In this document: positions 7,013 to 40,156 of the stretch, piece after piece
Position numbering within the stretch: position 1 is the first letter of the stretch
Layout: each line of letters opens with the position of its first letter
Source of the DNA: Nitrospiria bacterium
Lineage (GTDB): Bacteria > Nitrospirota > RBG-16-64-22
Reading direction: 5' to 3'
Assembly: GCA_919903025.1 (NCBI GenBank)
Contig: CAKKSE010000008.1
Span: 16,334-80,333, forward strand
DNA: 64,000 nt
Program-made: the position numbers and the translations under genes
Notes under the pieces: model-generated
Database searches by the model: none
The model's input: only the letters and a program-made list of their open reading frames with translations
What the model was told of the DNA's origin: nothing

Positions 7013-8296
7013 TCAGGCGTACCTGAGCCACCAGTAGAGACTGGCGATCGCGATCGAGAACAGCATCAGCGGAAACGCCAACAGCATGAACGGGAGGAAC
7101 CGGATCGGCTGGCCCGCCCGCTCGGCGAACCCGGCGACGATCAGGTTGGCCGAGGCGCCGATGATCGAGCCGTTGCCGCCGAGGCAGGCCCCGAGCGCGA
7201 GCGCCCACCAGAGGGGGCGGATGGCCTCATCGCCTCCGAACGAGGGCCCCATGCCCTTGATAATCGGGATCATCGTCGCCACGAAGGGAATGTTATCCAC
7301 CAAGGCGGAGAAGACGGCCGAGCCCCACATGATGACCATCCCCGCCAGGAAGAGGTTTCCCCTCGTGAGGTCGGCCAGTTGGCCGGCCAGGATGTTGAGA
7401 AGCCCCGCCTTCTCCAGGCCGTGGACGAGCATGAACAAACCGACGAAGAAGAAGATCGTCACCCACTCGACCTCGCCGAACGTGTGGTGAAAATCCTTGC
7501 CGGACCACCAGAGGAGAACCACGGCGCCCGTCAAGGCGATGATGGCCGGCTCCAGGTGGAGGGAATGCGCCATCGTGAAGCCCGCGATCACTCCCGCGAG
7601 CACGGCCATCGACTTCCACAGGAGGACCCGGTCGCTGATGGCGTCCCCCTCCCGGAACTCCATGATCCGCTCCCGATCCTCCTCTGCAACCTTCATCTTG
7701 CGCCCCCAGATAAGGTAGAGGGGAAGAAGCGTGGCAAGAAAGATGACGACCGTCACGGGCGCAAGATGGATCACAAAGTCCATGAACGACAGCCCGGCGG
7801 CCGAGCCGATCAGGATGTTAGGCGGATCGCCGACGAGCGTCGCCGTCCCACCGATATTGCAGGCAAAGATCTGCGCGAACAGGAACGGGTAGGCCGAAAC
7901 CTTCAGGGCATCGGCGATCAGCATCGTCACGGGCGCCACGAGAAGGACCGTCGTCACGTTGTCCAGCAGGGCCGAGAGTACGGCCGTGACGACGGCCAAT
8001 ACGACCAGGATCGGCCACGGCCGCCCGCCCACCTTCTTGGCCGACCAGATGGCGAGGAACTGGAACACCCCCGACTTCTGGGTGATCGCCACGATCACCA
8101 TCATCCCCACGAGGAGGAAGATCGTGTTCAGGTCGATCCCTTTGAACGCGTCGGCCTGCGACTGGATGCCCGCGAAGATCATGATCGCGGCGCCCAGGAG
8201 CGCGATCACGGCGCGGTTGACCTTCTCCGTCATGATAGCGATGTACGTGGCGATGAAGATGCCCGTGGCAACGACGAGCGCGGCGGTTCCCGTCAC
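7013..8296 (-). CDS. ArsB/NhaD-superfamily anion permease (CitMHS/YbiR-like)
   Basis: 427 aa polytopic protein with IGGTATLVGDPPNILIG and duplicated halves. Confidence 0.65.
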   Translation of the reverse strand: MTGTAALVVATGIFIATYIAIMTEKVNRAVIALLGAAIMIFAGIQSQADAFKGIDLNTIFLLVGMMVIVAITQKSGVFQFLAIWSAKKVGGRPWPILVVLAVVTAVLSALLDNVTTVLLVAPVTMLIADALKVSAYPFLFAQIFACNIGGTATLVGDPPNILIGSAAGLSFMDFVIHLAPVTVVIFLATLLPLYLIWGRKMKVAEEDRERIMEFREGDAISDRVLLWKSMAVLAGVIAGFTMAHSLHLEPAIIALTGAVVLLWWSGKDFHHTFGEVEWVTIFFFVGLFMLVHGLEKAGLLNILAGQLADLTRGNLFLAGMVIMWGSAVFSALVDNIPFVATMIPIIKGMGPSFGGDEAIRPLWWALALGACLGGNGSIIGASANLIVAGFAERAGQPIRFLPFMLLAFPLMLFSIAIASLYWWLRYA

Positions 8297-26987: not shown

Positions 26988-28250
26988 ATGGCGGAAGGAA
27001 TAAGCGGTTTCGTCGTCGTCGGCGTCATTCTGGCCGGCTCGATCGCAGCCTTCGTCATCGGCGCGATCATCGGCCGAAAAAAGGGCGCGGCCGAAGTCGA
27101 GCAATCCTTTAACCAGAACATCAAGCAGGTCGAGGCCCGCCTAGCCTCCGAGGGTTCTTTCCGGAAGGCGCTCCAGAACGAGATCGACTGGCTCAAAAAG
27201 GAGAACGAGCGGTACATCCACCTGTTCGTTACGTTCCCCGAGGCCGTCAAGCGCCTCAACTCCACCCAGTCGGTGGACGAAGTCTCCTCGGCCGTCGTCC
27301 GCCTGGCGAAGATGCTCATCGACGCGGACGAGATCAGCCTCTTCTTCTACAAGGAGGCCGAGAACGAGCTCCGCATCGCCCTGGCCTTCGGGATCAAGCG
27401 CGAGCAGGCCGAGGGGCTCCGCGTGCCGTTCGGCGAGGGGATGATCGGGACGGCGGCCGAGACCCGCGTCCTCCTCTCCGAGAACGAATACCGGACCAAC
27501 CCCGAATACGTCGAAAAGAGGGCCCGCGCGCGGGAGACGCGGATCGTGTCCACCTACGCCGCGCCGATCGTCTGCAAGGAAAAGCTCTACGGCGTCCTCA
27601 ACATCGGGAACATCAAGAACCGCACGGGAAACGAGCGGAAATTCCTGGCCATGATCTCCGACCTGGCCGCCGTCTCGCTGGAGAACGCCCTCACGCTCTC
27701 GGGGACGAGAACGGAGGCGACGACCGATCCCCTCACGAGCCTCTACAACCGGCGTTACTTCCAGGAGCGCCTCGTCGAGGAAGTCCAGCGCTCCCGGACG
27801 TACAACGTCCCTCTTTCCGTCTTCATGATGGACATCGACAACTTCAAGCACTACAACGACAACAACGGCCACCCGGAGGGCGACAGGCTCCTCAAGGCGG
27901 TCTCCAAGCTCATCCGGGACAACACGCGCAAGACCTCCATCGTCGCCCGCTACGGCGGCGAGGAGTTCATCGTCCTTCTTCCCGACACTCCCAAGGAAGG
28001 CGCCATGGCCTACGCGGAGAAGATGCGATCGCTCATCTCGGGGACGGAGTTCCCGCACGGCGACAACCAGCCGCTCAGGTGCATCTCGGTCTCCGGGGGC
28101 GTCGCCACGTTTCCCTTCGACGGGGACTCGGGCGACGAGATCGTCCGCCGCGCCGACGAGGGGCTCTACCAGAGCAAGGAGCGGGGGAGGAACCGCGTCA
28201 CCCCCTACGAGCCGCCCGCCTTCCACAAGATGACCCTGCCGGGAGACTGA
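26988..28250 (+). CDS. GAF-GGDEF diguanylate cyclase (membrane-anchored)
   Basis: N-terminal TM segment, coiled coil, GAF domain and a GGDEF domain with an intact RYGGEEF active site. Confidence 0.85.
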   Translation: MAEGISGFVVVGVILAGSIAAFVIGAIIGRKKGAAEVEQSFNQNIKQVEARLASEGSFRKALQNEIDWLKKENERYIHLFVTFPEAVKRLNSTQSVDEVSSAVVRLAKMLIDADEISLFFYKEAENELRIALAFGIKREQAEGLRVPFGEGMIGTAAETRVLLSENEYRTNPEYVEKRARARETRIVSTYAAPIVCKEKLYGVLNIGNIKNRTGNERKFLAMISDLAAVSLENALTLSGTRTEATTDPLTSLYNRRYFQERLVEEVQRSRTYNVPLSVFMMDIDNFKHYNDNNGHPEGDRLLKAVSKLIRDNTRKTSIVARYGGEEFIVLLPDTPKEGAMAYAEKMRSLISGTEFPHGDNQPLRCISVSGGVATFPFDGDSGDEIVRRADEGLYQSKERGRNRVTPYEPPAFHKMTLPGD

Positions 28251-29971: not shown

Positions 29972-30070
29972 GGGAGCGGCTCGGTCACTGGTGGACCGCT
30001 AGGTCTTCAAAACCCATGTGGGGTGCTGAGAGGCGCTCCAGGTGGGTTCGATTCCCACACGCTCCCGCCA
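29972..30070 (+). tRNA. tRNA-like gene with selenocysteine-tRNA architecture (UCA anticodon, long extra arm), a candidate selC or a pseudo-tRNA
   Basis: Hand-folded from the sequence. The 7-bp acceptor GGGAGCG/CGCTCCC is followed by a G8·A mismatch abutting the T-stem, giving 8/5 geometry. The D-stem is CGGTC/GACCG. The anticodon arm has loop CTTCAAA, identical to the E. coli tRNA-Sec loop. The extra arm is an 8-bp stem (3 G·U pairs) with a GAGA tetraloop. The T-arm is GTGGG-TTCGATT-CCCAC, with G73 and an encoded CCA. Total length is 99 nt. Confidence 0.45.
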
Positions 30071-30399
30071 GATTCTCTTTGTTTCCAGGGTCGCCCCCAC
30101 TGGTCAACGCCATCAATCGTTCGCTTCCATCGTCTTTTCGCCCCCGCCGCCCTCTTTCGCACCAGATGAGGAACGCTGACGGCTTTGCAGAACGAGCGTC
30201 CAGCAGACCGTCGGCTTCCACTCCTCAGGGGCTCCGCCGGCCTTCCGATCCTCTCTCAGGATCTTGCGGAGTTCCCGCCAGTCCTCCCGCGTCCACCTGT
30301 ACCCCTCGCTCCGGTCTTCGCTCCGTGTATTCCCGTTCCGGCACATGCCCTATCCCCCCTTGCGAACCGGCCGCCCAAGACGGGTAACACAGGGTCCGT

Positions 30400-32619
30400 C
30401 TACTCAAACTCGATCTTTACATCGTTGGAGAGGTTCAGATCGGCCAGAATCTGCTGAAGTTCGGTCTGCAGGGACCGGGCCGAATCTGCGCTGGTGGTCA
30501 CCGAGAACTCTACACCGATACGCAGATCGGAGCCCGATCTGAGCTTCGGAATGATCTTGGTTCCCAGCCTGTTCCAGTGCTCCGGAGGGATCGTGCCGAC
30601 CACTCTGAGCGTCCGCGTTTCCTGAGCAGGTCCCTTTGTAATGCCGGGAAGCGACGTGAGTATTTCCGGTTCCGCCTCGGGTAGACGTTCCGGCCCTTTC
30701 ACGACGACCCCAACCTTCAACGCCTCGGCCCTCGCCTTCGTCAGGAGGAAGACCCCGCTGTCGAACACAATCTCCTCCGGCGCGACAACCTCCTTAAACC
30801 AGACCCTCTCGTATTCTCCATCCGTCCTCAATCCCGACGCCAGGCCCAAGCTTCCCTTGTCCACGAACTCAGAGATCTTGCTCCTCAAGACCTGTTCGGG
30901 ATCCACGAGACGGGTCAGCGCCCCGGTCAGAAAACTCTGGCGGAGGCTCGCCAGCGGCCAGGCACTGGTTTCCTTGAAAGCGGGCGGCCAGTTCCGCTCT
31001 ATGCAGCCGGCTCCCACGGATTCGTTTAGAAGCGAGTATGACTTGAGAGCGGAGATAATCCGGCCGGCCAGCGTCTCACTGGCGCTCGCGTGTCCCGCAC
31101 CGAGGTCAATGATTTTGAGCCCGCTTGCTTCACCAGGATCCGCAAGCGCCACGCACCGATAGCTGGCCCATACTTCGGCCTTTGCGGACTCCTCGGCGTC
31201 CCTGACGCGCGTGTGCAGTTCAAGCCGGTCGGACCGGTCGAAGTCGCCGCCCAGGATGCCTTCATCCACGTCTCTTTTCACGCGCCTCCAAGCGAGCCAT
31301 GTCTCGACCTTCTCGCGGAGGTCCCGGCCGGGCTTCTTGACGCACCAGACGAGCGCCGCTGGATACAGCCGGTCGGAAGACCCCCGCCTCTTCGTCCACT
31401 CAAGAACCCTCTTTGGCACGTCCCCTTTCGCTTCCCACTCGATCTCCGGAGACGTAACCACGAGTGTCAGCCTGGGGGAATCCTGGATTTCAGACGCATC
31501 CGCCGGAAAGGGGGCCCAGGAGATGCTTCGCCCCCGGTCGAATTCGACTTTGACAACCAACTCCATGGCAGGCCGGATTTCGTTCTCCTCGTCAAGAGAG
31601 GCCCGTCTGTCGCTCACGACCTTCTTCAAAGTCGGCAGGTAGCCGATCCGAAAGCCATCGGTTCCCGCCTTCCGTACGTAGTAGGCTTTCGACTCGAGCG
31701 CCAGGGCGGCAGTGTCGATGGATGTCGTGTCGGTCCCTGGCTCGCCCAGGGCGAACCTCAGCTCCGGGAGATGTGCGACCCGGTCCAGTTGTCCCCCGGA
31801 CGATTCGAAGAGAATGGCTGTCGCTACCCGCCTATGAATGCCGCGCAGCAACCCCTTGGCATCCGCATCGAGCACGCGGGTATGCGCGTTGGCGCCGGCA
31901 ATGTCGGTATCGATCGCGGCGACCAGGCGGGATTCTCCCAGTTGACCGAGCACGATGCTTCGGAACTCCGGTACTTCGAGCGGCGCCGAGCCGAGAGTAA
32001 TTAGCGGCTCTGTTCTTGCCTTCTGGAAGCCTTCCCGCCAGTCGCAATGCACATAGATGCTTCCATCATCCGCCAACAAATCACGCATCAACACCAATCT
32101 CTCGTAGATCATGGCTATAAAGGAATCTGCGCCCTTCCCCCACGTATCGCGGTAGGCGAGTTCTTCGAGAATGCTCGGCTTCTTGGTAAAGGTGTCGTCG
32201 CCAATTTCGATGTCCATCGAGAAGTCCGCGCCCACGTCGAACGGCGGATCGATGTAGATCAGCTTGATGCCGCCCTGCTTCTCGATTTCCTCATGCAACG
32301 GACCATTCTTGAGGCTGGCGAGAATCAGCTTGTTGTCGCCCCAGATCAGCTTGTTGGTCCAGCCCTTGAGCTGCCGCCCACTGGCGGGGTCGAACAGGTC
32401 GCCCTGAATCTTTACGTCCTTCTCCGCCCGCGGCTCGTCCACCTGCTCGATAGTCTGAAACGGCAGCACCACATTGCAGACCCCATTCGTTTTGCCGTTC
32501 CATACCAACTCCACCTCGCGCTTCTCCTCGAACAATAGAAAGCGGTACTTCTCCGGCAGCGGCTTGCCGGCCTCCAGCAGTTTCACAATGTCGCGGATTT
32601 CGTTGTCGGTTAGCTTCAT
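30400..32619 (-). CDS. Mod-like N6-adenine DNA methyltransferase-domain protein with a roughly 480-aa uncharacterised C-terminal region (canonical FxGxGTT motif I not evident)
   Basis: N-terminal 200 aa include NKLIWGDNKLILASL and GGIKLIYIDPPF (motif IV, DPPY-type), then SIYVHCDWR. This matches the beta-class Mod/N6_N4_Mtase order. The start overlaps the stop of the upstream ATPase (ATGA). Confidence 0.6.
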   Translation of the reverse strand: MKLTDNEIRDIVKLLEAGKPLPEKYRFLLFEEKREVELVWNGKTNGVCNVVLPFQTIEQVDEPRAEKDVKIQGDLFDPASGRQLKGWTNKLIWGDNKLILASLKNGPLHEEIEKQGGIKLIYIDPPFDVGADFSMDIEIGDDTFTKKPSILEELAYRDTWGKGADSFIAMIYERLVLMRDLLADDGSIYVHCDWREGFQKARTEPLITLGSAPLEVPEFRSIVLGQLGESRLVAAIDTDIAGANAHTRVLDADAKGLLRGIHRRVATAILFESSGGQLDRVAHLPELRFALGEPGTDTTSIDTAALALESKAYYVRKAGTDGFRIGYLPTLKKVVSDRRASLDEENEIRPAMELVVKVEFDRGRSISWAPFPADASEIQDSPRLTLVVTSPEIEWEAKGDVPKRVLEWTKRRGSSDRLYPAALVWCVKKPGRDLREKVETWLAWRRVKRDVDEGILGGDFDRSDRLELHTRVRDAEESAKAEVWASYRCVALADPGEASGLKIIDLGAGHASASETLAGRIISALKSYSLLNESVGAGCIERNWPPAFKETSAWPLASLRQSFLTGALTRLVDPEQVLRSKISEFVDKGSLGLASGLRTDGEYERVWFKEVVAPEEIVFDSGVFLLTKARAEALKVGVVVKGPERLPEAEPEILTSLPGITKGPAQETRTLRVVGTIPPEHWNRLGTKIIPKLRSGSDLRIGVEFSVTTSADSARSLQTELQQILADLNLSNDVKIEFE

Positions 32620-35297
32620 GATCCACCCACCAAATGCGCAGCTTGTGTGTTCTTCTTCAGATGCGCATGCTGCTCTTGTGCTTTTTCCGCCTTATCTTTC
32701 TGCTTGCTCAAAAAATCCTTGAACGACTCAAGATCGGCGGTCATCTCTTTGGTCGTTGGTAATGATGTATTCGCGGCAACGGCGTGGTCATGCAAGTCAA
32801 CAATTGACGATGCGCGCGTCATTCCGGCGAACACCGATTCGACCGACTCAAAATCTACGCGAACACCGGTTAAGCTCTGTGTCTTAATCTCGTTTTCCAA
32901 TCTCTGTAACACTTTATTAAACAGGATCTCCTCCACCGAGCGCTCCCACGTTGAACGCAGTAGTACGTAGTACTCACGATTCAGCTTCCTGTAATCGTCA
33001 GGGTTGCCAGCGGTTTCTGCTGCTTTTGCGTCCGCAAGCAGTTTATCCAGGTGATGTACGCGCAGCGCCACTTTGGAGCCAGACCATGGCAGAAAGCGGG
33101 TAACGATTCCGGTGGCGTTACCAAGCGCCTCAATGTTCTGCGGCGAAATCTCGGTGCCCTGATGGTCGGCGTCGGCTTCCTCCCACAAATCGCGAAGGAA
33201 GACGAGATCGTGCGTGAAGATGATGACTTGCCTTGTCCTTGCCTCTTTGACTAAAAGCCGGACAACACCACCGCGGATGCGGTGGTCGAGGGAGGTTACC
33301 GGATCATCCAGGATGATTCCGCAATTATCGTCATTCGCACTCAGTTCAGCCAGAAAGCAGGCGAGCGAGATGGCTGTCCGCTCGCCTTCACTAAATACCG
33401 CCTCGGGATTGCCCAGCGTGGCTCCTTCGATGGTTACCTTGTGGAGAACCTTGCCTTTGCCGCCCGGTTGCCGTTCGACGCCGAGCCGAGCTCTATCCAG
33501 GCCGATGTCTTTGAGATTATTAAGCATCTGGGTCTTGAACGCGTCGGTAACGAGTCGTTGCTGGAGTTCGCCCGCTTTCAGGGCAATCTTGTTCGTCGTG
33601 ATCTTGTCAGCCGCCGCTTTTTCAGCTTCGGCCAGCTTCAGGCTGCGCAAATGAGCGAGGACTGAAGCGAGATTTTGATTCAATTTAAGGCGGGCCTTGA
33701 GTTCGGCTATTTCCGCTTCGAGTAGCCGTATTTGCTCAGTTACTTTGGCATCATCGGCAAGCTCCTTGAGCCGTTCCCCAATGGCTTTGATCTCCGCGTC
33801 ACAGGCCTGCGCTGGTGACATTGGCTCAGGCGGCAGTTCTTCCCATTGGCGGGATTTGGCCGCTTCTTCGATGGCGGTAAGTCTGTTTGTTGCGGCTGGA
33901 AAGAAAACCTTGAGTTCTTCGAAGATTGTCGAACCGGCCGCCTTCAAAGAATCCTCAAGAACTTCGATTTCCTTCGGCATACCGTGCGGCAGTTCTGCCA
34001 ATGCCTTCCGCTCCGCTTCAGCATTTAGGGCTGCTGCATCGCGCTTGCTTGATACATCGTCCTGAATGAACTTCCAAAACCCTTCCAGCCGGAGCCGCGC
34101 TGCCTCATCAAGCGGTTGCAGGCAGAGCACGCATTTGGCGCCTTCTTGACTGGCTGGGAAGGGTTGGCCTGGGTATGCTACCTGCGTCGAATACTTCTCT
34201 GCGGCCATTAGTAGCTCGCGCCACACGTCACCGCCGACATCTTTCATTTCGAGGCCGCCGAACGTGGCCTTCGCGGCGACTTCAACGGCCTGCTCGCACT
34301 TCTGCAACTCGGCGATCTTGCCATTTATCTCGGTGACCCGGGCTGCTGAGATACCGTTCAGCATCGAGGATACGCTGGACTTGATTGTTTCCAGCCGTTT
34401 CTTCTGCGCGAGAAGCGAAGCTCGCAGAACCTGCGGTGAATTGGCCTTGAGTTGGGATAGTTCCTGTTCCTTGGCCTTGAGAGTCTCAGTATTTTGTTCT
34501 GTCCACTCGGCCCGTTTCTTTACATCGTCTTCCGATGTGCGCGCACCGATTGCCCCGATGAATTTGCCCGTAGCCGTGGTGTCCACAAGATGACTGAGCG
34601 CGTCCGGTTTCGGCGCATGCTGGGTAGCAAGGTCTTGAAGGCGTTTCTTGACCTCGGCAGTAATGTCGCCAAGCCCCCTGATGATGTCGAAACCATAGGG
34701 CAGGAAACTCAGCTCGTTGCTGCCCGTAATGTAGATGCGCGCGCACTTGGAATCGAACACCGCGAAGCGGCTGAGGCCGCTGGACGAGGGCGAGCCGTCA
34801 ATCCATTTTTCGTCGCGGACTTTGCCGGTCTCTTCGATCTCAAAAATTGCGGATGCGGGCCCCGTTTTCGCTGAAGCGTAGACATTGGGCAAGATGTCAT
34901 CGACCACACGCGCATGAAACGCCTTTTTCATCACACGGGCGTAACCAGACTTGCCGGACGCATTGTGGCCGTAGATCACGGTAAGCTGTTTGCCGATGGG
35001 CAGGCGCTGACCGTCTTTTAGCGCATTCACGTTTTCCAGGTCGCGCACCCCGACAAGGGCCAGTTTCTGACCAGGCACTGGTGGCGGAGGCAGGTCAGCG
35101 TTTTTCAACATCAGGTCGCCGAGAGGTGCAGCCGCCTTCTTTAGCCCGTGCTCGACAAGCGCGATATCGAATATTTCGTCTCTGTCTTTCTGCGGCAGTG
35201 AGCCACTTTTGGCGAACATCCGACGAATCGCCTCGTTTTGCCAAGGGGCCAAGTCCTTCGACAAGCTCAACAGTTCGGAAAATATATTGTTCGCCAT
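32616..35297 (-). CDS. AAA_13-family ABC-type ATPase, RloC-like (putative anticodon nuclease with a Rad50-like coiled coil and CxxC zinc hook)
   Basis: Walker A GHNASGKS. A roughly 400-aa coiled-coil insert containing KCVLCLQPL (CxxC). Then the signature, Walker B and D-loop (ILDDPVTSLD) and an H-loop (FTHD). The C-terminal roughly 200 aa are a non-ATPase domain, as in PrrC/RloC anticodon nucleases. Confidence 0.55.
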   Translation of the reverse strand: MANNIFSELLSLSKDLAPWQNEAIRRMFAKSGSLPQKDRDEIFDIALVEHGLKKAAAPLGDLMLKNADLPPPPVPGQKLALVGVRDLENVNALKDGQRLPIGKQLTVIYGHNASGKSGYARVMKKAFHARVVDDILPNVYASAKTGPASAIFEIEETGKVRDEKWIDGSPSSSGLSRFAVFDSKCARIYITGSNELSFLPYGFDIIRGLGDITAEVKKRLQDLATQHAPKPDALSHLVDTTATGKFIGAIGARTSEDDVKKRAEWTEQNTETLKAKEQELSQLKANSPQVLRASLLAQKKRLETIKSSVSSMLNGISAARVTEINGKIAELQKCEQAVEVAAKATFGGLEMKDVGGDVWRELLMAAEKYSTQVAYPGQPFPASQEGAKCVLCLQPLDEAARLRLEGFWKFIQDDVSSKRDAAALNAEAERKALAELPHGMPKEIEVLEDSLKAAGSTIFEELKVFFPAATNRLTAIEEAAKSRQWEELPPEPMSPAQACDAEIKAIGERLKELADDAKVTEQIRLLEAEIAELKARLKLNQNLASVLAHLRSLKLAEAEKAAADKITTNKIALKAGELQQRLVTDAFKTQMLNNLKDIGLDRARLGVERQPGGKGKVLHKVTIEGATLGNPEAVFSEGERTAISLACFLAELSANDDNCGIILDDPVTSLDHRIRGGVVRLLVKEARTRQVIIFTHDLVFLRDLWEEADADHQGTEISPQNIEALGNATGIVTRFLPWSGSKVALRVHHLDKLLADAKAAETAGNPDDYRKLNREYYVLLRSTWERSVEEILFNKVLQRLENEIKTQSLTGVRVDFESVESVFAGMTRASSIVDLHDHAVAANTSLPTTKEMTADLESFKDFLSKQKDKAEKAQEQHAHLKKNTQAAHLVGGS

Positions 35298-35377
35298 AGG
35301 AAACGCTGCTGGTTAGTAGTGCGTAAGCCTACAATCGCGGAATCTTCCGATGTTTTCGATACTGATAAATTTCTCAA

Positions 35378-36676
35378 TCATGGCTCACCGCTCTTGTCCG
35401 GCACCGCGTCTATGGGAGTAGATGCCTCAAGTGCCTTCATTTCCAGACCTTCGATCTCCTGCAACGACTTGCCCGCGATGCCTTGCAGGTCCCCATACAT
35501 TCCGACGGTTGACTGCATGACGCGGTCGATCTGCTCCTCGCGCTTGGCCCACTGCTTGGTGATCGCCTTCCTCTCCTTGTCGAGGTCTTCCTGCATGTTG
35601 GAAAACGCTTCGACGATGGCTTCCACCCTCTGGCGGAAGCGCGGGCCGGTGAGGTACTGGTAGATCATTTCCGTTTTTGTTTGCTGGCCTTCGGATGCCT
35701 GCCGCGCTATGGTGATTTCCAGCAACGACTGGCGAAGGATTACCGCCACCGGCAATGCAACGCGGGGGTGTGTTACCCAGACGCCCTCAACCATCTCGAA
35801 GGTTTCAACCCCTTTCGGCAAACTCTGGCTTACAATCACGGCGATTTCAGCTTTTGCGGTGCGTTGGTCTTCCCGCAATTTGGTCAGCCATGCGTCGCTC
35901 CAGTTTTTGGTGCGCTTGGACTCCCACAGGATGGTGCCGCTGGCCTGGCCGCCCGAGCCGACAACACGGTGCACCACATCCCCGCCGTATTCGCCCTTGG
36001 GCACGGGCTCGATAACATCGAAAGGGAATTTAGTGCGCAACAGACTTTCTAGTTCCAGTTCCTGCACTTCGCCCTGCAATTGCTGCGAGCCTTGTTCAGC
36101 CTTGCGTTTCAGGTCTTCAATCTGTTTCTGCATCGCGGCGATGATCTGTTCTTTCTCCATCACCTTAAGCTTCTGTTCGTCTTCGACCTCCTTGCGCGCC
36201 TGGACACGGGTAGCGGCAAGCCCTTCCTGAATCCGCTTCTCGATGGTCAGTTCTATTTCACGTCGGGCATCATCAAGCTCGCGCTGTTTGCGGATCAGGT
36301 CAGCCTGTGCCTTCTGCGCCTCGGCGAGTTTCACGTCCCGTTGTTTCAGCACTTCTTGCAGATCGGCAAGCTCCTTGCTCTTCTGATCCAGATCGTTCGC
36401 CAGCGCTAATTTGGCTTTCTTGGCTTCCTCCGCGGCGATCTTGGCGCGTTCCTGCCGAACCTTCTCGGCGACCTGATCGTCGATGGTGTCTTTCGCCTTG
36501 GTGAGTGCTTCTTCACGCTCACGGAGCGACGATTCGCGGCTGGCAATGTCAGCGTCTTTCTTTGCCAGGCGCTGCTCATAGTCACGGCGAGTGGATTCAA
36601 TGAGTGGCGCCGCCAGTGATTCCGTGAGTTTGATCTCGGTTTTGCACTGCGGGCAGACAATAGTTGGTTCTGTCAT
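35378..36676 (-). CDS. DUF2130-family protein (N-terminal CPxC zinc ribbon, long coiled coil, conserved C-terminal domain)
   Basis: MTEPTIVCPQCKTEI..., then KE-rich coiled coil, then a C-terminal globular domain of about 200 aa. Own AT-rich promoter region at 36680-36750. Confidence 0.55.
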   Translation of the reverse strand: MTEPTIVCPQCKTEIKLTESLAAPLIESTRRDYEQRLAKKDADIASRESSLREREEALTKAKDTIDDQVAEKVRQERAKIAAEEAKKAKLALANDLDQKSKELADLQEVLKQRDVKLAEAQKAQADLIRKQRELDDARREIELTIEKRIQEGLAATRVQARKEVEDEQKLKVMEKEQIIAAMQKQIEDLKRKAEQGSQQLQGEVQELELESLLRTKFPFDVIEPVPKGEYGGDVVHRVVGSGGQASGTILWESKRTKNWSDAWLTKLREDQRTAKAEIAVIVSQSLPKGVETFEMVEGVWVTHPRVALPVAVILRQSLLEITIARQASEGQQTKTEMIYQYLTGPRFRQRVEAIVEAFSNMQEDLDKERKAITKQWAKREEQIDRVMQSTVGMYGDLQGIAGKSLQEIEGLEMKALEASTPIDAVPDKSGEP

Positions 36677-36755
36677 CGACCTCTCCTTAACTCACTGAAA
36701 TTCGCTTTCCGAAATCAATTCCGGGAATCTTATAAAATTCTTCCTGACTCGGCGG

Positions 36756-37100
36756 TTACCTGTATTCGATACAAATTGCTATCCCCGCCACGATCTCCTC
36801 CATCAGCGGTTCGGGGAGCTGCCCCAGCTTCTTGACCAAACGGGTTTGGTCAACGGAACGGACCTGGAACGTATCCGCCCCCGACTTCTTGGTGAGGCCG
36901 TTCTGTTTGTCAGGTTCAAGGTAAATCATCCACGGGTAGCCGGCATATGGCGGTTTCCAGTCCGTGATGGGGACGATGATCTTCAAAGGCAGTTTGCCAA
37001 TGCTGTTGGAACTCACCACGACGGCGGGCCGGGTCTTCTTGATTTCCTGTCCAATGGTCGGATCGAGATTGACCAGCCACACCTCTCCACGGTCAATCAT
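36756..37100 (-). CDS. MazF/PemK/Kid-family toxin (mRNA interferase)
   Basis: GEVWLVNLDPTIGQEIKKTRPAVVVSSNSIGKLP is the PemK signature. Overlaps the upstream gene by a few codons. Confidence 0.75.
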   Translation of the reverse strand: MIDRGEVWLVNLDPTIGQEIKKTRPAVVVSSNSIGKLPLKIIVPITDWKPPYAGYPWMIYLEPDKQNGLTKKSGADTFQVRSVDQTRLVKKLGQLPEPLMEEIVAGIAICIEYR

Positions 37101-38295
37101 TGACCGCCCCGTCAAGTTCGGTGAAGGCGGTCAGCTCTTTGTCTGTTTCGTACTCGTGCACCGCGCGTTCCGCCGCCGCTTCGAGCAGTGTGCGGCGTTC
37201 GTCCAGCGACAGCGCGGCGATCTTCTTGGCCTTGGTCATTTCTCCCTCCTTACCGTTCAGCGATACTACGCCGGGATTCAATTCCTCGGCTCGCTCACGG
37301 GAGATAATGCCTTCCGCCATCGCTCGCAGCACGAGCTGTTTGAAGCGTAGCGGCTGTTCCGGTGCGACTTGCTTGCCGGGCTCGTGCTTGTGCCATCTAC
37401 GTTTGCGAAAAATGACCACGGTGTTCTTGTACCAGCTTGGCGTGATAATCCCGAGGTCCTTTGCGCGCCGCAACCAGGCCTGCATGCTCAAGCCGTATTT
37501 GTGTTTTAGCAGCAGCAGTTCATCGAACTCGATACGGCTTCGAGACCTACCAAGCTCCATGTATGCCGCTTCATCCGGCACCAAGAAGGCCGCGGCAAAG
37601 CGATGAGCGATATCCTCGTCTTCTTTCGGTTGTTTCTGCTTTATTACCAAATGCCCAAGTTCGTGGGTGAGATTGAACCGCTGACGATCTCCGGACATGG
37701 CGGCATTGGTGACAAGTACCGGAACCTTTCCCCCGTCGTCACCGAGAACCGTCGCCCAGGCTGAATGGCCGTCGAATCGCTCATCGGCATCCAGCGCCAA
37801 TACCGCGGCGGCGTGGTCTTCGAGTGTTTCGGCTAGATTCTCGATGGGGTCCAGACCGATTTTCCAAACCTCTCTAAGCTCTTTGGCGATTTTCTCTGCA
37901 TCGTCCACAGACTTCGCTTGTCGGGGTTTCGGAATGCCGGCCGCCGCGCGCCATTCGAGTTTCCTGTCGGCGGGGAACAGGGCGGCCAACCAACAATAGT
38001 GTTCGAGGTGATCGGAGATCTGTACTTGCAGCCGACTGGCCTCGGCCTTGGGCAAGCGGCTGTGTTTGCGGTAGGCGATGAACTCCACCTTGACCTTCGG
38101 TTCCTGCATGAAGTAGCTCGTCTTGACGCGCAGCGCATCAGCCAGACGCACGAGCACTTCCGGGCCTGGAACGCTCTTGCCGGTTTCGTACTTGGAAATG
38201 GCCTGCTTCGTGAGGAAGTGGTCCATCTTGGCTACCAGCGCGTCCATGGACAAACCTGCACCGAGCCTGGCCTGTTTCAACCGTTCGCCTATCAT
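37093..38295 (-). CDS. Xre-family HTH fused to an ImmA/IrrE (COG2856, M78) zinc peptidase domain, with a short C-terminal tail; predicted antitoxin/regulator partner of the MazF-like toxin
   Basis: N-terminal HTH_3 (LSMDALVAKMDHFLTKQAISKYETGK). Central HELGH (HExxH) with the downstream E typical of ImmA/IrrE. The last roughly 50 aa are charged/helical and overlap the toxin start. Confidence 0.7.
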   Translation of the reverse strand: MIGERLKQARLGAGLSMDALVAKMDHFLTKQAISKYETGKSVPGPEVLVRLADALRVKTSYFMQEPKVKVEFIAYRKHSRLPKAEASRLQVQISDHLEHYCWLAALFPADRKLEWRAAAGIPKPRQAKSVDDAEKIAKELREVWKIGLDPIENLAETLEDHAAAVLALDADERFDGHSAWATVLGDDGGKVPVLVTNAAMSGDRQRFNLTHELGHLVIKQKQPKEDEDIAHRFAAAFLVPDEAAYMELGRSRSRIEFDELLLLKHKYGLSMQAWLRRAKDLGIITPSWYKNTVVIFRKRRWHKHEPGKQVAPEQPLRFKQLVLRAMAEGIISRERAEELNPGVVSLNGKEGEMTKAKKIAALSLDERRTLLEAAAERAVHEYETDKELTAFTELDGAVND

Positions 38296-38307
38296 TCGAC
38301 CTCCGGT

Positions 38308-38390
38308 AGGTTGACGGAAAGGATTAGATTGACGAATTCGTCAACAGTTGACAGAATAACAAATAAGTTCCGTATTGTCAACCCATTGTC
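38308..38390. promoter_or_regulatory. Divergent promoter/operator region: perfect 16-bp palindrome TTGACGAATTCGTCAA plus inverted GTTGACA...TGTCAAC half-sites
   Basis: Read directly: palindrome at 38329-38344, GTTGACA at 38347-38353, TGTCAAC at 38376-38382, a further TTGAC at 38311. AT-rich. Confidence 0.5.
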
Positions 38391-38393
38391 GAG

Positions 38394-38576
38394 GTGGTCC
38401 ACATGGCAAAGAACCCACCACCCCGCGATAACCATCGCAAAGGCGCCGTTACCGGCCGTTCGCAGACTTACAACCCCAAGACCGACTCTTGGGTAAAGCG
38501 CGATACCGAAACCGGTCGGTTTATGGACCAGAAGTCCGATGACAAACCGTTCAAGGGCGTACGGAAAGAGAAATAG
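38394..38576 (+). CDS. Small basic hypothetical protein (60 aa)
   Basis: ORF lies immediately downstream of the operator region. Lys/Arg-rich. No recognisable family. Confidence 0.25.
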   Translation: MVHMAKNPPPRDNHRKGAVTGRSQTYNPKTDSWVKRDTETGRFMDQKSDDKPFKGVRKEK

Positions 38577-38627
38577 GATTTCGCACAAGCAGCCCCCCCG
38601 GACAAGTTCTCTCCCGGCCTCATGGTT

Positions 38628-38905: not shown

Positions 38906-40156
38906 TCAGCCGGTGGGCGTTGCGGGTTGAGGCTCTTTGGCCGACTCGGGCTCCGGCTCCTTGTATTTCTCGTAGACCTCGAGTATCTCGTCTACCCCCT
39001 CGAAGAAAGCGTCCACGCAAACCGGGTCGAACTGCTTGCCGCGCTCCTGTCTCACCCACTCGATCACGTGGTCGAGGCTCATGGGGGGCTTGTAACAGCG
39101 GCGGGACGAGAGCGCGTCGAACACGTCGGCCAGGGAGACGACCCGCCCTTCCAGCGGAATCCGGTCGCCCCGCAGGCCGTAGGGGTACCCGGTGCCGTCG
39201 TAGTGCTCGTGGTGCGAGAGGGCCACGGACTTGGCCACGCGGATGAGGTCCGAGTCCGGGTTCCCGAGGATGTCGGCGCCGATGATCGTGTGGCCCTCCA
39301 TCACCTTCCGCTCGTCCTGCGTGAGCGGCCCCGGCTTCATGAGGATCGAATCGGGGACGCCGAGCTTCCCCACGTCGTGCATCGGCGAAGCGTAGAGGAG
39401 CAGGTCAATCTCTCCCTTGCTCCACCCCATGGCCTTCGAGATCAGGGCCGAGTACCGGCTCATCCTCTGGATGTGGTAGTAGGTGTCCCGGTCCCGGTAT
39501 TCGGCCGCGACCGACAGCCGTAGGATCGAGTCGAAGTGGGCCTTCTTGATCTGCGCCGTGAGATGGGCGTTCTTGAGAGCCACGGCGGCCTGGGACGCTA
39601 GGGATAGGACCAGTTCCTCGACCATCCCGGAGAACGCGACGGGCTTCCCGTGGGCGTCGAGCGCGTTGATGAGCTGGAGGACGCCGATCACCGTGTCCTG
39701 CGGGTCCTTGAGCGGCACGACCATGAGCGAGCGCGTCCTGTACATGTACCGCTCGTCGAACTCCTTGTTGAAGTGGTAAGGCTCCGAAGCGGGAATCTTG
39801 TAGGCGTCGCGGATGTTGAGTATCTGGCCGGTCGAAGCGACGTAGCCGGCGAGGCTCTGGTGGGAGATGGGGATCGTCCGGTTGAGGTATGGGTTCTTTT
39901 GAACGGCGCCGGCCTGGCGCTTCATGATCGTGTCGTTCTGAGACACGACGAACCGGAGGAGGCCGTCCTCGACGACATAGAGGCTTCCTGCGTCGGACCG
40001 CGTGAACCGTCTCGCTTCGGTGACGATCTGCTCGAGGAGAACGTCAAGATCGTGCTCGCTCGTGAGGGCGATGCCGATCTTGAGCAGATTGGAGATGAGC
40101 TGTTCGGTCCTTGAAGGGGCCATCGTCTTCTGAGAAATCCCCGCCGACACCGGCAT
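38906..40156 (-). CDS. GAF-domain HD-GYP phosphodiesterase
   Basis: GAF N-terminal domain. HD domain with HD...HHEHYDGTGYP (HD-GYP signature). Confidence 0.85.
   Translation of the reverse strand: MPVSAGISQKTMAPSRTEQLISNLLKIGIALTSEHDLDVLLEQIVTEARRFTRSDAGSLYVVEDGLLRFVVSQNDTIMKRQAGAVQKNPYLNRTIPISHQSLAGYVASTGQILNIRDAYKIPASEPYHFNKEFDERYMYRTRSLMVVPLKDPQDTVIGVLQLINALDAHGKPVAFSGMVEELVLSLASQAAVALKNAHLTAQIKKAHFDSILRLSVAAEYRDRDTYYHIQRMSRYSALISKAMGWSKGEIDLLLYASPMHDVGKLGVPDSILMKPGPLTQDERKVMEGHTIIGADILGNPDSDLIRVAKSVALSHHEHYDGTGYPYGLRGDRIPLEGRVVSLADVFDALSSRRCYKPPMSLDHVIEWVRQERGKQFDPVCVDAFFEGVDEILEVYEKYKEPEPESAKEPQPATPTG

Follow-up and report, generated by a model that had tools for sequence, protein, structure and literature searches.

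How a MazF ribonuclease is restrained when no MazE-type antitoxin lies beside it is the question raised by a gene pair on contig CAKKSE010000008.1 of a Nitrospiria bacterium (assembly GCA_919903025.1). The whole stretch of DNA analysed here, called the window, is 64,000 nucleotides (nt) long; all coordinates follow its numbering, and both genes of the pair are located on the minus strand. The first gene encodes a protein of 400 amino acids (aa) in which an Xre-type helix-turn-helix (HTH) domain, an M78 zinc peptidase and a helical C-terminal tail are joined, and the second encodes a toxin of the MazF/PemK type. The pair is probably a two-gene type II toxin–antitoxin (TA) operon of the RosmerTA/VapBC52 kind, composed of MazF and a three-part antitoxin. 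Moreover, it is very likely that the tail is the cognate MazF-neutralising element, grafted onto an HTH–peptidase scaffold.

First of all, the toxin is, judged by its profile match, a bona fide member of the PemK/MazF family. It matches the Pfam family PF02452 (PemK_toxin) with an expectation value (E) of 7.6e-27 and 94.1 bits against a cut-off of 23.1, over profile positions 2-107 of 109, and its closest solved structures are Kid (E 6.8e-10) and MazF9 (E 7.7e-9). Across 66 members of the subfamily, conservation reaches 90% or more for the motifs RPAxV and VPxT and for the residues R23 (in KTRPAVVV) and T46 (in VPIT). The catalytic Arg/Thr of MazF are R29/T52 in E. coli and R25/T48 in B. subtilis; we take R23/T46 to be the counterparts of E. 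coli R29/T52, matched by eye and without structural alignment. When the toxin is aligned with Kid, the Kid-specific R73/D75 prove not to be conserved. No PADLOC model, RmrT included, matches the MazF protein at E ≤ 0.1. The reading frame also offers an alternative TTG start at 37115 (36756..37115, minus strand), which would give 119 aa, but the ATG at 37100 is the more likely start, because the resulting 114-aa sequence is exactly the NCBI entry MEK6813260.1, named PemK/MazF family toxin and derived from a Nitrospirota metagenome-assembled genome. The 400-aa protein also has an exact entry, MEK6813261.1 ('XRE family transcriptional regulator').

Since the two genes share 8 nt, a separate antitoxin open reading frame (ORF) cannot fit between them; the 79-nt gap 3′ of mazF contains no ORF of at least 30 aa. 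An identical overlap between the called genes is found in the relatives L161, L164, L167 and L169, and the arrangement suggests translational coupling. An earlier sequence-only reading of this locus had described a PemK-fold toxin preceded by a fusion of an HTH and a zinc peptidase (HELGH), with a helical C-terminal tail running over the toxin start and with the expected small AbrB/SpoVT-type antitoxin missing. This description holds: Pfam recognises PF02452 in the toxin and HTH_3 plus Peptidase_M78 in the upstream protein, AlphaFold2 places helices in the tail, and neither an ORF fitting between the genes nor a Pfam MazE/AbrB domain is present.

What connects the tail with the toxin is their joint distribution. 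The family of the 400-aa protein is large (1583 matches at E < 1e-5 among 8000 candidates scored), and its members fall into two length classes, one of ~340-360 aa without a tail and one of ~390-410 aa ending in a conserved motif, approximately L-[SP]-x-x-E-R-x-x-x-L-x-x-A-A-x-x-A-x-x-x-Y-x-x-D-x-E-L-T-x-F-x-x-(L/F)-(D/G)-x-x-D. When 80 genome loci (L001-L080, ORFs called by script) were surveyed, a homologue of the window MazF was found directly downstream, usually overlapping, at 13 of them, and all 13 belong to the long class. The C-terminal extension is thus present in 13/13 MazF-linked homologues and in 0/67 of the others. At 56 of these 67 loci the tail-less protein is followed instead by an overlapping protein of ~165 aa, PIN + DUF3368-like in its weak Pfam matches (E 1e-3 to 4e-5). 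A hidden Markov model (HMM) of the tail picks up the module in 8 of the 13 proteins linked to MazF and in 0/67 of the rest (Fisher p = 4e-8); by eye, the five missed tails are diverged versions of the same acidic/aromatic end. The tail-less PIN-linked scaffolds were also seen to end just 13-25 residues past the conserved core. In a neighbour-joining tree of scaffold residues 1-340, the MazF-linked proteins form two groups; the tree is midpoint-rooted and without bootstrap, so that it allows no conclusion on one versus two acquisitions of the tail.

The MazF-linked loci belong to Planctomycetaceae, Chloroflexota, Ktedonobacterales, Zixibacteria, Dethiobacter, Thermoactinomycetaceae and others, the fused antitoxin–MazF pairing also occurs in at least 10 metagenome loci, and relatives at 79-92% identity carry the pair in differing genomic neighbourhoods. 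This recurrence bears on the idea that an ImmA/ImmR-like immunity regulator of a prophage or an integrative and conjugative element merely came to stand beside an orphan MazF. The location of the pair in a low-GC island beside a tRNA-SeC gene would suit such an origin. However, the 8-nt overlap is conserved, the pairing is found at more than 25 independent loci in many phyla and in differing neighbourhoods, and no integrase or phage gene was seen among the island ORFs scanned. Fortuitous adjacency is effectively refuted by the recurrence data and is scarcely credible.

The tail module is not confined to this scaffold. Its profile, 48 positions long, was searched against 1.84 billion representative proteins and found 1235 at E ≤ 1e-3 (clusters at 50% identity), 215 of them at E ≤ 1e-10. 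Among the top 150 matches, the great majority are 45-125 residues long and carry the module at the C-terminus; the source databases label these small proteins 'hypothetical protein'. Some consist of the module and hardly anything else (P0134, 68 aa; P0137, 63 aa; P0199, 45 aa), and the 45-47-aa proteins P0199, P0242 and P0260 contain the module only. In other proteins it follows a MazE/AbrB-type domain (P0126, whose 23.9 bits narrowly miss the Pfam gathering score of 24.7), an AF2212-like domain (P0124) or DUF3467 (P0245). Two tandem copies each are present in P0129 and P0148 (125 and 154 aa), and 12 partial matches in P0240 (1179 aa), so the module can be duplicated. A natural fusion of the tail with MazF was also sought, and the sole result was a truncated, artefact-like protein (P0166).

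Through an alignment of the small tail proteins, 80 metagenome loci were collected, containing 68 tail ORFs with at least 300 nt of sequence downstream. A MazF homologue lies immediately downstream of 59 of the 68, that is, of 49/57 small and 10/11 fused ORFs. The MazFs beside the metagenome tail ORFs are 44-55% identical to the window MazF and those beside fused antitoxins mostly 46-60%; since these ranges overlap, both sets are regarded as one MazF subfamily. It is on account of this co-occurrence, in fused as well as small proteins, that the tail is read as the MazF neutraliser. The proposal of the sequence-only reading that the tail is an embedded antitoxin, and the fused protein a replacement for MazE/PemI, gains support from the co-variation with the toxin and from the 59 adjacencies. 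In the AlphaFold2 model the tail region has helices at residues 349-360, 364-384 and 390-395; confidence is weak in the linker (341-360), and the helix 364-384 reaches a predicted local distance difference test score (pLDDT) of ~90. A mostly helical, acidic/aromatic tail of ~48 residues, held behind a flexible linker, would bind and block the MazF dimer. The module appears portable: it occurs alone (in proteins of ~63-75 aa), behind AbrB/MazE- or AF2212-type N-terminal domains, and on the HTH–peptidase scaffold.

Since the tail also occurs as a protein of its own, it has to be asked whether it is made separately here. A Shine-Dalgarno (SD) sequence and an in-frame ATG (Met353) stand exactly at the N-terminal edge of the module, and across the 400 codons this is the only internal start with a strong SD, stronger by eye than the SDs of both annotated starts. 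The real antitoxin could then be a ~48-aa peptide, with the full-length protein merely a regulator or sensor. The 45-47-aa proteins that hold just this module are in line with such a product. Most homologues down to 71% identity retain Met353 although the linker around it varies, and an SD-like motif plus ATG is kept in the DNA of 3/5 relatives (L161, L168, L169). On the other side, L167 has the ATG without SD and L164 a GTG with a distant SD; neither L164/L165 (80% identity) nor any distant fused gene conserves the site. By chance, some internal SD plus start turns up in about half of the genes compared, so that the prior for a stretch of ~15 codons is ~3% and the coincidence is suggestive, not significant. 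The conservation of the fusion in different phyla also speaks for a functional tethered form. The site may be a relic of the ribosome-binding site of a captured antitoxin gene, a functional internal start for a 48-aa antitoxin, or chance. A functional nested start is improbable, and the same low probability is given to a free peptide as the real antitoxin. No separate small ORF lies between the genes, where the sequence-only reading had said that one would count against it, and the nested SD–ATG comes near to that case from inside the gene.

The scaffold that carries the tail begins with an Xre/Cro-type HTH domain. It superposes on the HTH domains of ImmR, P22 c2 and DdrO at a root mean square deviation of 1.0-1.3 Å (Foldseek), and the family profile matches the DNA-binding domain of ImmR at E 9.9e-11. 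Directly upstream of the gene, a promoter-like site is followed by GTCAAC/GTTGAC repeats and a perfect palindrome, in whose region direct repeats were also found. A -10-like box followed by GTCAAC-N(0-2)-GTTGAC recurs upstream of the orthologues L001, L004, L021, L024, L029, L032, L037 and L060, which belong to other phyla. With good comparative support, the conserved repeats are the predicted operator of the HTH domain. The HTH would probably bind the repeats overlapping the promoter and repress the operon, and it may also repress the divergent 57-aa gene. Autorepression of the operon by the antitoxin HTH is considered reasonably likely.

Behind the HTH domain follows a zinc-peptidase core of the M78 (ImmA/IrrE/CapP) type with the HELGH motif. 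H211, E212 and H215 are invariant and E227 is at least 90% conserved among 81 sequences of 39-93% identity that cover both toxin classes, and this conservation points to selection on catalysis. The AlphaFold2 model of the whole protein, built with 81 homologues, has a pLDDT of 88.4 and a predicted template modelling score of 0.79. Its best solved fold match in Foldseek is CapP (7t5t, E 3.4e-4), and the family profiles match 9vzy_A (E 5.6e-7), CapP and IrrE; a single-sequence search of the PDB with aa 60-280 recovered neither VapB52 nor CapP, which only the profiles found. The entry 9vzy_A is a 393-residue 'HTH cro/C1-type domain-containing protein' with three chains, and it is probably M. tuberculosis VapB52. 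Fourteen PADLOC RmrA models match the 400-aa protein (E 2e-44 to 1.4e-24), more strongly than do the capP and capH models, but only over aa 1 to ~345; since the RmrA models stop there, the C-terminus appears to be the variable, toxin-specific part of this class of antitoxins. An AbrB/MazE domain (PF04014) was not detected by Pfam in the 400-aa protein, nor in the tail at E ≤ 10.

The nearest characterised system is VapBC52. It has been reported that VapB52 of M. tuberculosis is built from an HTH, a peptidase resembling CapP and a helical C-terminal domain covering the active site of a PIN toxin (PMC13273310, NAR, June 2026). According to the same work, single-stranded DNA (ssDNA) activates VapB52 to cut itself, in a manner that depends on HExxH, where HTH and peptidase join, close to a conserved 'FR' motif, and in the resting state a cysteine-switch loop (Cys229) blocks the zinc site (PMC13273310). 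The window protein shares with it a single large chain with an Xre HTH, a CapP/IrrE-like HExxH peptidase and a helical C-terminal part, with the toxin gene immediately downstream, as well as a proposed role in phage defence. It also has a conserved aromatic-Arg motif in the HTH/peptidase linker, Y75-R76, which resembles the 'FR motif' of VapB52; the profile alignment to 9vzy_A begins past this linker and does not reach the motif. R76 is invariant among the 81 sequences, and the pLDDT drops to 68 at residues 71-80.

The differences are equally clear. The toxin of VapBC52 is a PIN ribonuclease whereas that of the window is MazF; a PIN/DUF3368 partner is found only with the sister class that lacks the tail. 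The four-helix C-terminal domain of VapB52 is unrelated to the window tail, its cleavage takes place at the HTH/peptidase junction and not at the C-terminus, and ssDNA-triggered self-cleavage has been demonstrated for VapB52 while it is inferred for the window protein. In addition, the 13-residue insertion that bears Cys229 is missing from the window family: in the profile alignment, the Cys-bearing insertions of 9vzy_A and CapP face gaps of 13 and 17 residues, respectively, and the window loop from HExxH to the third zinc ligand (LVIKQKQPKEDED) contains no Cys. Some homologues of the 400-aa protein have a Cys at H+5.

Taken together with these analogies, the following mechanism is proposed. 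In the resting state the HTH would hold the operon repressed and the tail would hold MazF inactive, while the M78 peptidase, which looks catalytically intact and is of the CapP/IrrE/ImmA type, would be a device for self-cleavage that a signal controls. On the model of VapB52, CapP and IrrE, the peptidase may be switched on by a signal, for example ssDNA from phage infection or DNA damage. It would then cut its own chain, for which the best candidate site is the invariant [F/Y]75-R76 junction. This cut may relieve the repression and destabilise the antitoxin, and MazF, once freed, would cut RNA and bring growth to a halt. The least certain step is this release of MazF by triggered self-cleavage, which is put forward only tentatively. 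The sequence-only reading had suggested that the protease domain could release or degrade the tail; in VapB52, the single experimental precedent, the cut lies elsewhere, between HTH and peptidase.

Several points weigh against this picture. First, the tail does not detectably resemble MazE, Kis or any family with a solved structure or a curated model. The searches of the tail against Pfam and NCBIfam (E ≤ 10) and of its profile against all PDB sequences gave nothing significant. The alignment to MazE/PemI, which the sequence-only reading had proposed as a check, also came out negative: hhalign gave probabilities below 1% (0.05% against E. coli MazE and 0.28% against Kis, with MazE and Kis sequences entered by hand). 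XF1863, the MazF-associated family of Makarova, was considered as the tail family and not confirmed, the comparison being one by description (strand-helix-helix) only. Second, the Cys-switch loop by which CapP and VapB52 are regulated is missing, so activation may differ from theirs or not exist. Third, the pull-down of the VapB52 toxin required the N-terminal domain and not the C-terminal domain (PMC13273310), so the tail might not be the sole contact of MazF. Fourth, a cut at Y75-R76 could leave the peptidase–tail part on MazF, in which case cleavage alone would not explain release; its immediate effect would be derepression rather than release of the toxin. Finally, with an internal start at Met353, the neutraliser could be a separate small product.

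Some of the same facts are used by a plainer explanation, in which the locus is a conventional type II TA system, the peptidase serves as a structural or dimerisation scaffold and does not cleave in response to a signal, and host Lon/Clp degrade the antitoxin as they do MazE. The absence of the Cys-switch insertion fits it, and so do two observations on relatives: the zinc site of VapB52 is dispensable for toxin binding (PMC13273310), and the antitoxin relationship of RipAB involves ClpX (10.1101/2025.09.02.673660). However, invariant H211/E212/H215 and nearly invariant E227 in both toxin classes point to selection on catalysis, and all relatives that have been characterised (ImmA, IrrE, CapP, VapB52) are active proteases gated by a signal. 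A scaffold without proteolysis is held to be rather doubtful.

With the MazE–MazF and PemI(Kis)–PemK(Kid) systems the window pair shares the PemK/MazF toxin and an upstream antitoxin gene whose stop overlaps the toxin start. MazE and Kis neutralise via a C-terminal acidic/aromatic segment, and the window tail is proposed to do likewise. Unlike them, the window antitoxin has no AbrB/SpoVT or ribbon-helix-helix domain, and its tail shows no detectable similarity to MazE, Kis or the Pfam MazE_antitoxin family.

The fused architecture, to which the sequence-only reading drew attention, is real but less novel than was implied, since HTH–M78 antitoxins are already known (COG2856–Xre, RmrA, RipB, VapB52). 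COG2856–Xre fusions beside PIN and RelE toxins were predicted in 2009, and the COG2856 partners counted there were xre 145, PIN 60 and RelE 22, MazF not being among them (Makarova, Wolf & Koonin, PMC2701414). The architecture and the predicted type II toxin link are the same as in the window, and the tail-less PIN/DUF3368 homologues are that very class; in PMC2701414, however, the protease was seen as a toxin or third component and not as the antitoxin scaffold. RosmerTA, which defends against phage (Millman et al. 2022, 10.1101/2022.05.11.491447), likewise combines an HTH + M78 antitoxin with interchangeable toxins in defence islands, and the 14 RmrA models place the window antitoxin near it. 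Differences are that the window MazF matches no RmrT model and that the RmrA models leave the tail uncovered; because RmrT is loosely defined as diverse toxins, the missing match lowers strict RosmerTA membership only. The NetFlax study (Ernits et al. 2023, PMC10440598) describes an ImmA-domain antitoxin, node D25, as a hub with many toxin partners. In the parts of the RosmerTA and NetFlax literature that were accessible, no mention of a MazF/PemK partner for an RmrA-type antitoxin was found. A literature search for MazF/PemK with COG2856, ImmA or DUF955 found no description of the pairing, with incomplete coverage and as absence of evidence only.

Further relatives resemble the window protein in part. 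RipB (spr1629) of S. pneumoniae is an essential antitoxin made of an HTH and an ImmA-like domain, and its partner RipA is proposed to target the DnaN sliding clamp (10.1101/2025.09.02.673660). The NCBIfam model antitox_spr1629 (NF052239) covers aa 2-332 of the window protein (E 4.6e-36), but with 124.7 bits the match stays far below its cut-off of 335, which means that the window protein does not qualify as an spr1629 equivalog; RipAB (spr1630/spr1629) also differs in its DnaN-targeting toxin and its toxin-first gene order. CapH/CapP, ImmR/ImmA and DdrO/IrrE share the CapP peptidase fold, the ImmR/DdrO type of HTH and the signal-gated logic of a protease directed at an Xre repressor. They consist of two separate proteins that regulate transcription and neutralise no toxin, whereas the window protein is fused and has an added putative toxin-binding tail. 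PanA (Panacea/DUF4065) offers an analogy only: there, too, a conserved, possibly sensory scaffold carries exchangeable toxin-specific neutralising add-ons (PMC10440598), on a scaffold domain unrelated to HTH–M78.

The pair stands at one end of a low-GC island of ~8.5 kb (30070-38600), with a G+C content of 0.53-0.58 against 0.61-0.69 in the flanks, which begins right after the tRNA-SeC gene. Five co-directional minus-strand genes lie in the island: the methyltransferase, the PDC-S06 ATPase, the DUF2130 gene, mazF and the HTH–M78 gene. Genes of cyclic-di-GMP-type signalling, a GAF-GGDEF diguanylate cyclase and a GAF-HD(HD_5) protein, flank it on both sides. The neighbours PDC-S38, PDC-S06 and the type III-like methyltransferase give the pair a defence context that is suggestive. 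The features of the locus are collected in Table 1.

Table 1. Positions of the gene pair, its parts, the putative control sites and the neighbouring genes in the window
Feature	Position	Strand	Basis or remark
mazF/pemK toxin gene	36756..37100	-	114 aa, ATG 37098-37100; PemK_toxin PF02452
Antitoxin/repressor gene (RmrA-like): HTH, M78 peptidase, helical domain, tail	37093..38295	-	400 aa; Pfam HTH_3 + Peptidase_M78
Gene overlap ATGATTGA, 8 nt (mazF start / antitoxin stop)	37093-37100	-	read from sequence
C-terminal tail module, aa 353-400 (MTKAKKIAALSLDERRTLLEAAAERAVHEYETDKELTAFTELDGAVND)	37096..37239	-	motif L[SP]xxERxxxLxxAAxxAxxxYxxDxELTxF; proposed MazF-neutralising element
Flexible linker before tail, aa 341-352	37240-37275	-	low-confidence stretch in AlphaFold2 model
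In-frame AAGGAGG (37245-37251), 5 nt, ATG Met353 (37237-37239)	37237..37251	-	at N-terminal edge of tail module
M78 (ImmA/IrrE/CapP-type) zinc-peptidase core, aa 182-278	37462..37752	-	Peptidase_M78 E 5.7e-11
E227, probable third zinc ligand	37615-37617	-	aligns with Zn ligand E245 of 9vzy_A (profile alignment)
HELGH motif, H211-E-L-G-H215	37651-37665	-	read from sequence
Tyr75-Arg76 in HTH–peptidase linker, candidate self-cleavage site	38068..38073	-	family consensus [F/Y]-R-K-H
Xre/Cro-type HTH domain, aa 1-63	38107..38295	-	HTH_3 aa 6-62, E 2.6e-11
Promoter-like site + putative operators	38310..38381	-	promoter scan, 10/12 matches, sigma-70-like
GTCAAC half-site	38310-38315	-	repeat scan
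Perfect 16-bp palindrome TTGACGAATTCGTCAA	38329-38344	-	palindrome/repeat scan
Putative operator GTCAACTGTTGAC	38340-38352	-	directly downstream of promoter-like site
-10 box	38353-38358	-	promoter scan
-35 TTGACA	38376-38381	-	promoter scan
GAF-GGDEF signalling gene flanking the island	26988-28250	+	Pfam
Fic/DOC-domain protein, 369 aa	28707-29816	-	just before tRNA-SeC gene
tRNA-SeC gene	29972-30070	+	island begins right after
Type III-like DNA methyltransferase, 739 aa	30400-32619	-	PADLOC MTase_III, E 6.7e-45
AAA_13 ATPase, 893 aa	32616-35297	-	PADLOC PDC-S06 (phage-defence candidate), E 8e-184; overlaps methylase start by 4 nt
DUF2130 protein	35378-36676	-	downstream of mazF
Divergent basic 57-aa gene (MAKNPPPRDNHRKGAVTGRSQTYNPKTDSWVKRDTETGRFMDQKSDDKPFKGVRKEK)	38403-38576	+	PADLOC PDC-S38, full length, E 2.6e-33; without Pfam family
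GAF-HD(HD_5) signalling gene flanking the island	38906-40156	-	Pfam

The pair also heads other cargo elsewhere. In L164, L165 and L166 (80% identity; from position 7546 onwards) it occupies one chromosomal site, after msrB/msrA and a 57-aa gene, and different cargo begins 14-16 nt after mazF: DUF3644, an N6_N4 methylase (N6_N4_Mtase), DUF3800 and ResIII in L164/L166, and a 707-aa unknown protein with a DEAD/Helicase_C/MZB protein in L165. The site has the look of a hotspot for defence cargo, with the TA pair at its head. At other MazF-linked loci, DUF3800 (L001), Beta_protein (L032) or an HsdS fragment (L024) follows. The pair is found without defence cargo in L161, where it stands beside ribosomal protein genes, and in L169. 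Since the cargo varies or is missing, the pair is best described as autonomous, with a tendency to stand at the head of changing defence cargo.

The divergent 57-aa gene (PDC-S38) is separated from the operon by the 107-nt palindromic operator region. Its protein has ~1510 homologous clusters, and the best 120 matches are 75-91% identical and come from several phyla. A PDC-S38-like gene occupies the same divergent position in L164-L167. It comes after separate HTH + M78 genes beside a BglII restriction-modification system in Geobacter, is the first gene of a CBASS operon (antiphage signalling based on cyclic oligonucleotides) divergent from an M78 gene, and lies directly downstream of a tail-less RmrA-like gene in the viral contig L181. 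With narrow HMMs, an M78 gene was found as its neighbour in 1/11 viral loci. M78 regulators may have in the PDC-S38 protein a small effector or partner.

From these surroundings it could also be argued that the 400-aa protein is mainly a fused transcriptional switch of the CapH+CapP kind for the island, which controls the divergent PDC-S38 gene and the DUF2130/PDC-S06/type III-like methyltransferase genes besides mazF, so that MazF is only one effector among several under its control. CapP is the nearest fold, and the PADLOC capP and capH models do match. The pair heads closely spaced, co-directional and variable defence-like cargo in the window, in L164/L166 and in L165; the palindromes sit between promoter-like sites on both strands, and the promoter/terminator scan found no minus-strand terminator-like site after mazF. 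Against this stand the loci in which the pair has no cargo, and the strict co-variation of tail and MazF together with the small tail proteins beside MazF, which need a direct protein–protein relationship. An island switch as the main role is unlikely; it is compatible with MazF neutralisation by the tail and does not exclude it. The two may be combined, more speculatively and with a still smaller probability, by regarding the 400-aa protein as a signal-gated, self-cleaving hub that would clamp MazF through the tail, perhaps also as a free 48-aa peptide, and would repress both the PDC-S38 gene, by way of palindromic operators common to both, and read-through into DUF2130/PDC-S06/methyltransferase. 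If this were true, one proteolytic event would release a ribonuclease and switch on several other defences.

The pair bears on how the widespread HTH–M78 antitoxins of the RmrA type neutralise such different toxins, and on what role their peptidase plays. What is new here is MazF as the toxin partner of a RosmerTA/VapBC52-like fused sensor–antitoxin, with a recognisable grafted neutralising module. The module also exposes a large family of small MazF antitoxins (the 1235 clusters found with the tail profile) that has no Pfam or NCBIfam model. On sequence grounds the neutraliser is separable from the scaffold, that is to say, a module of ~45 residues would work alone or grafted.

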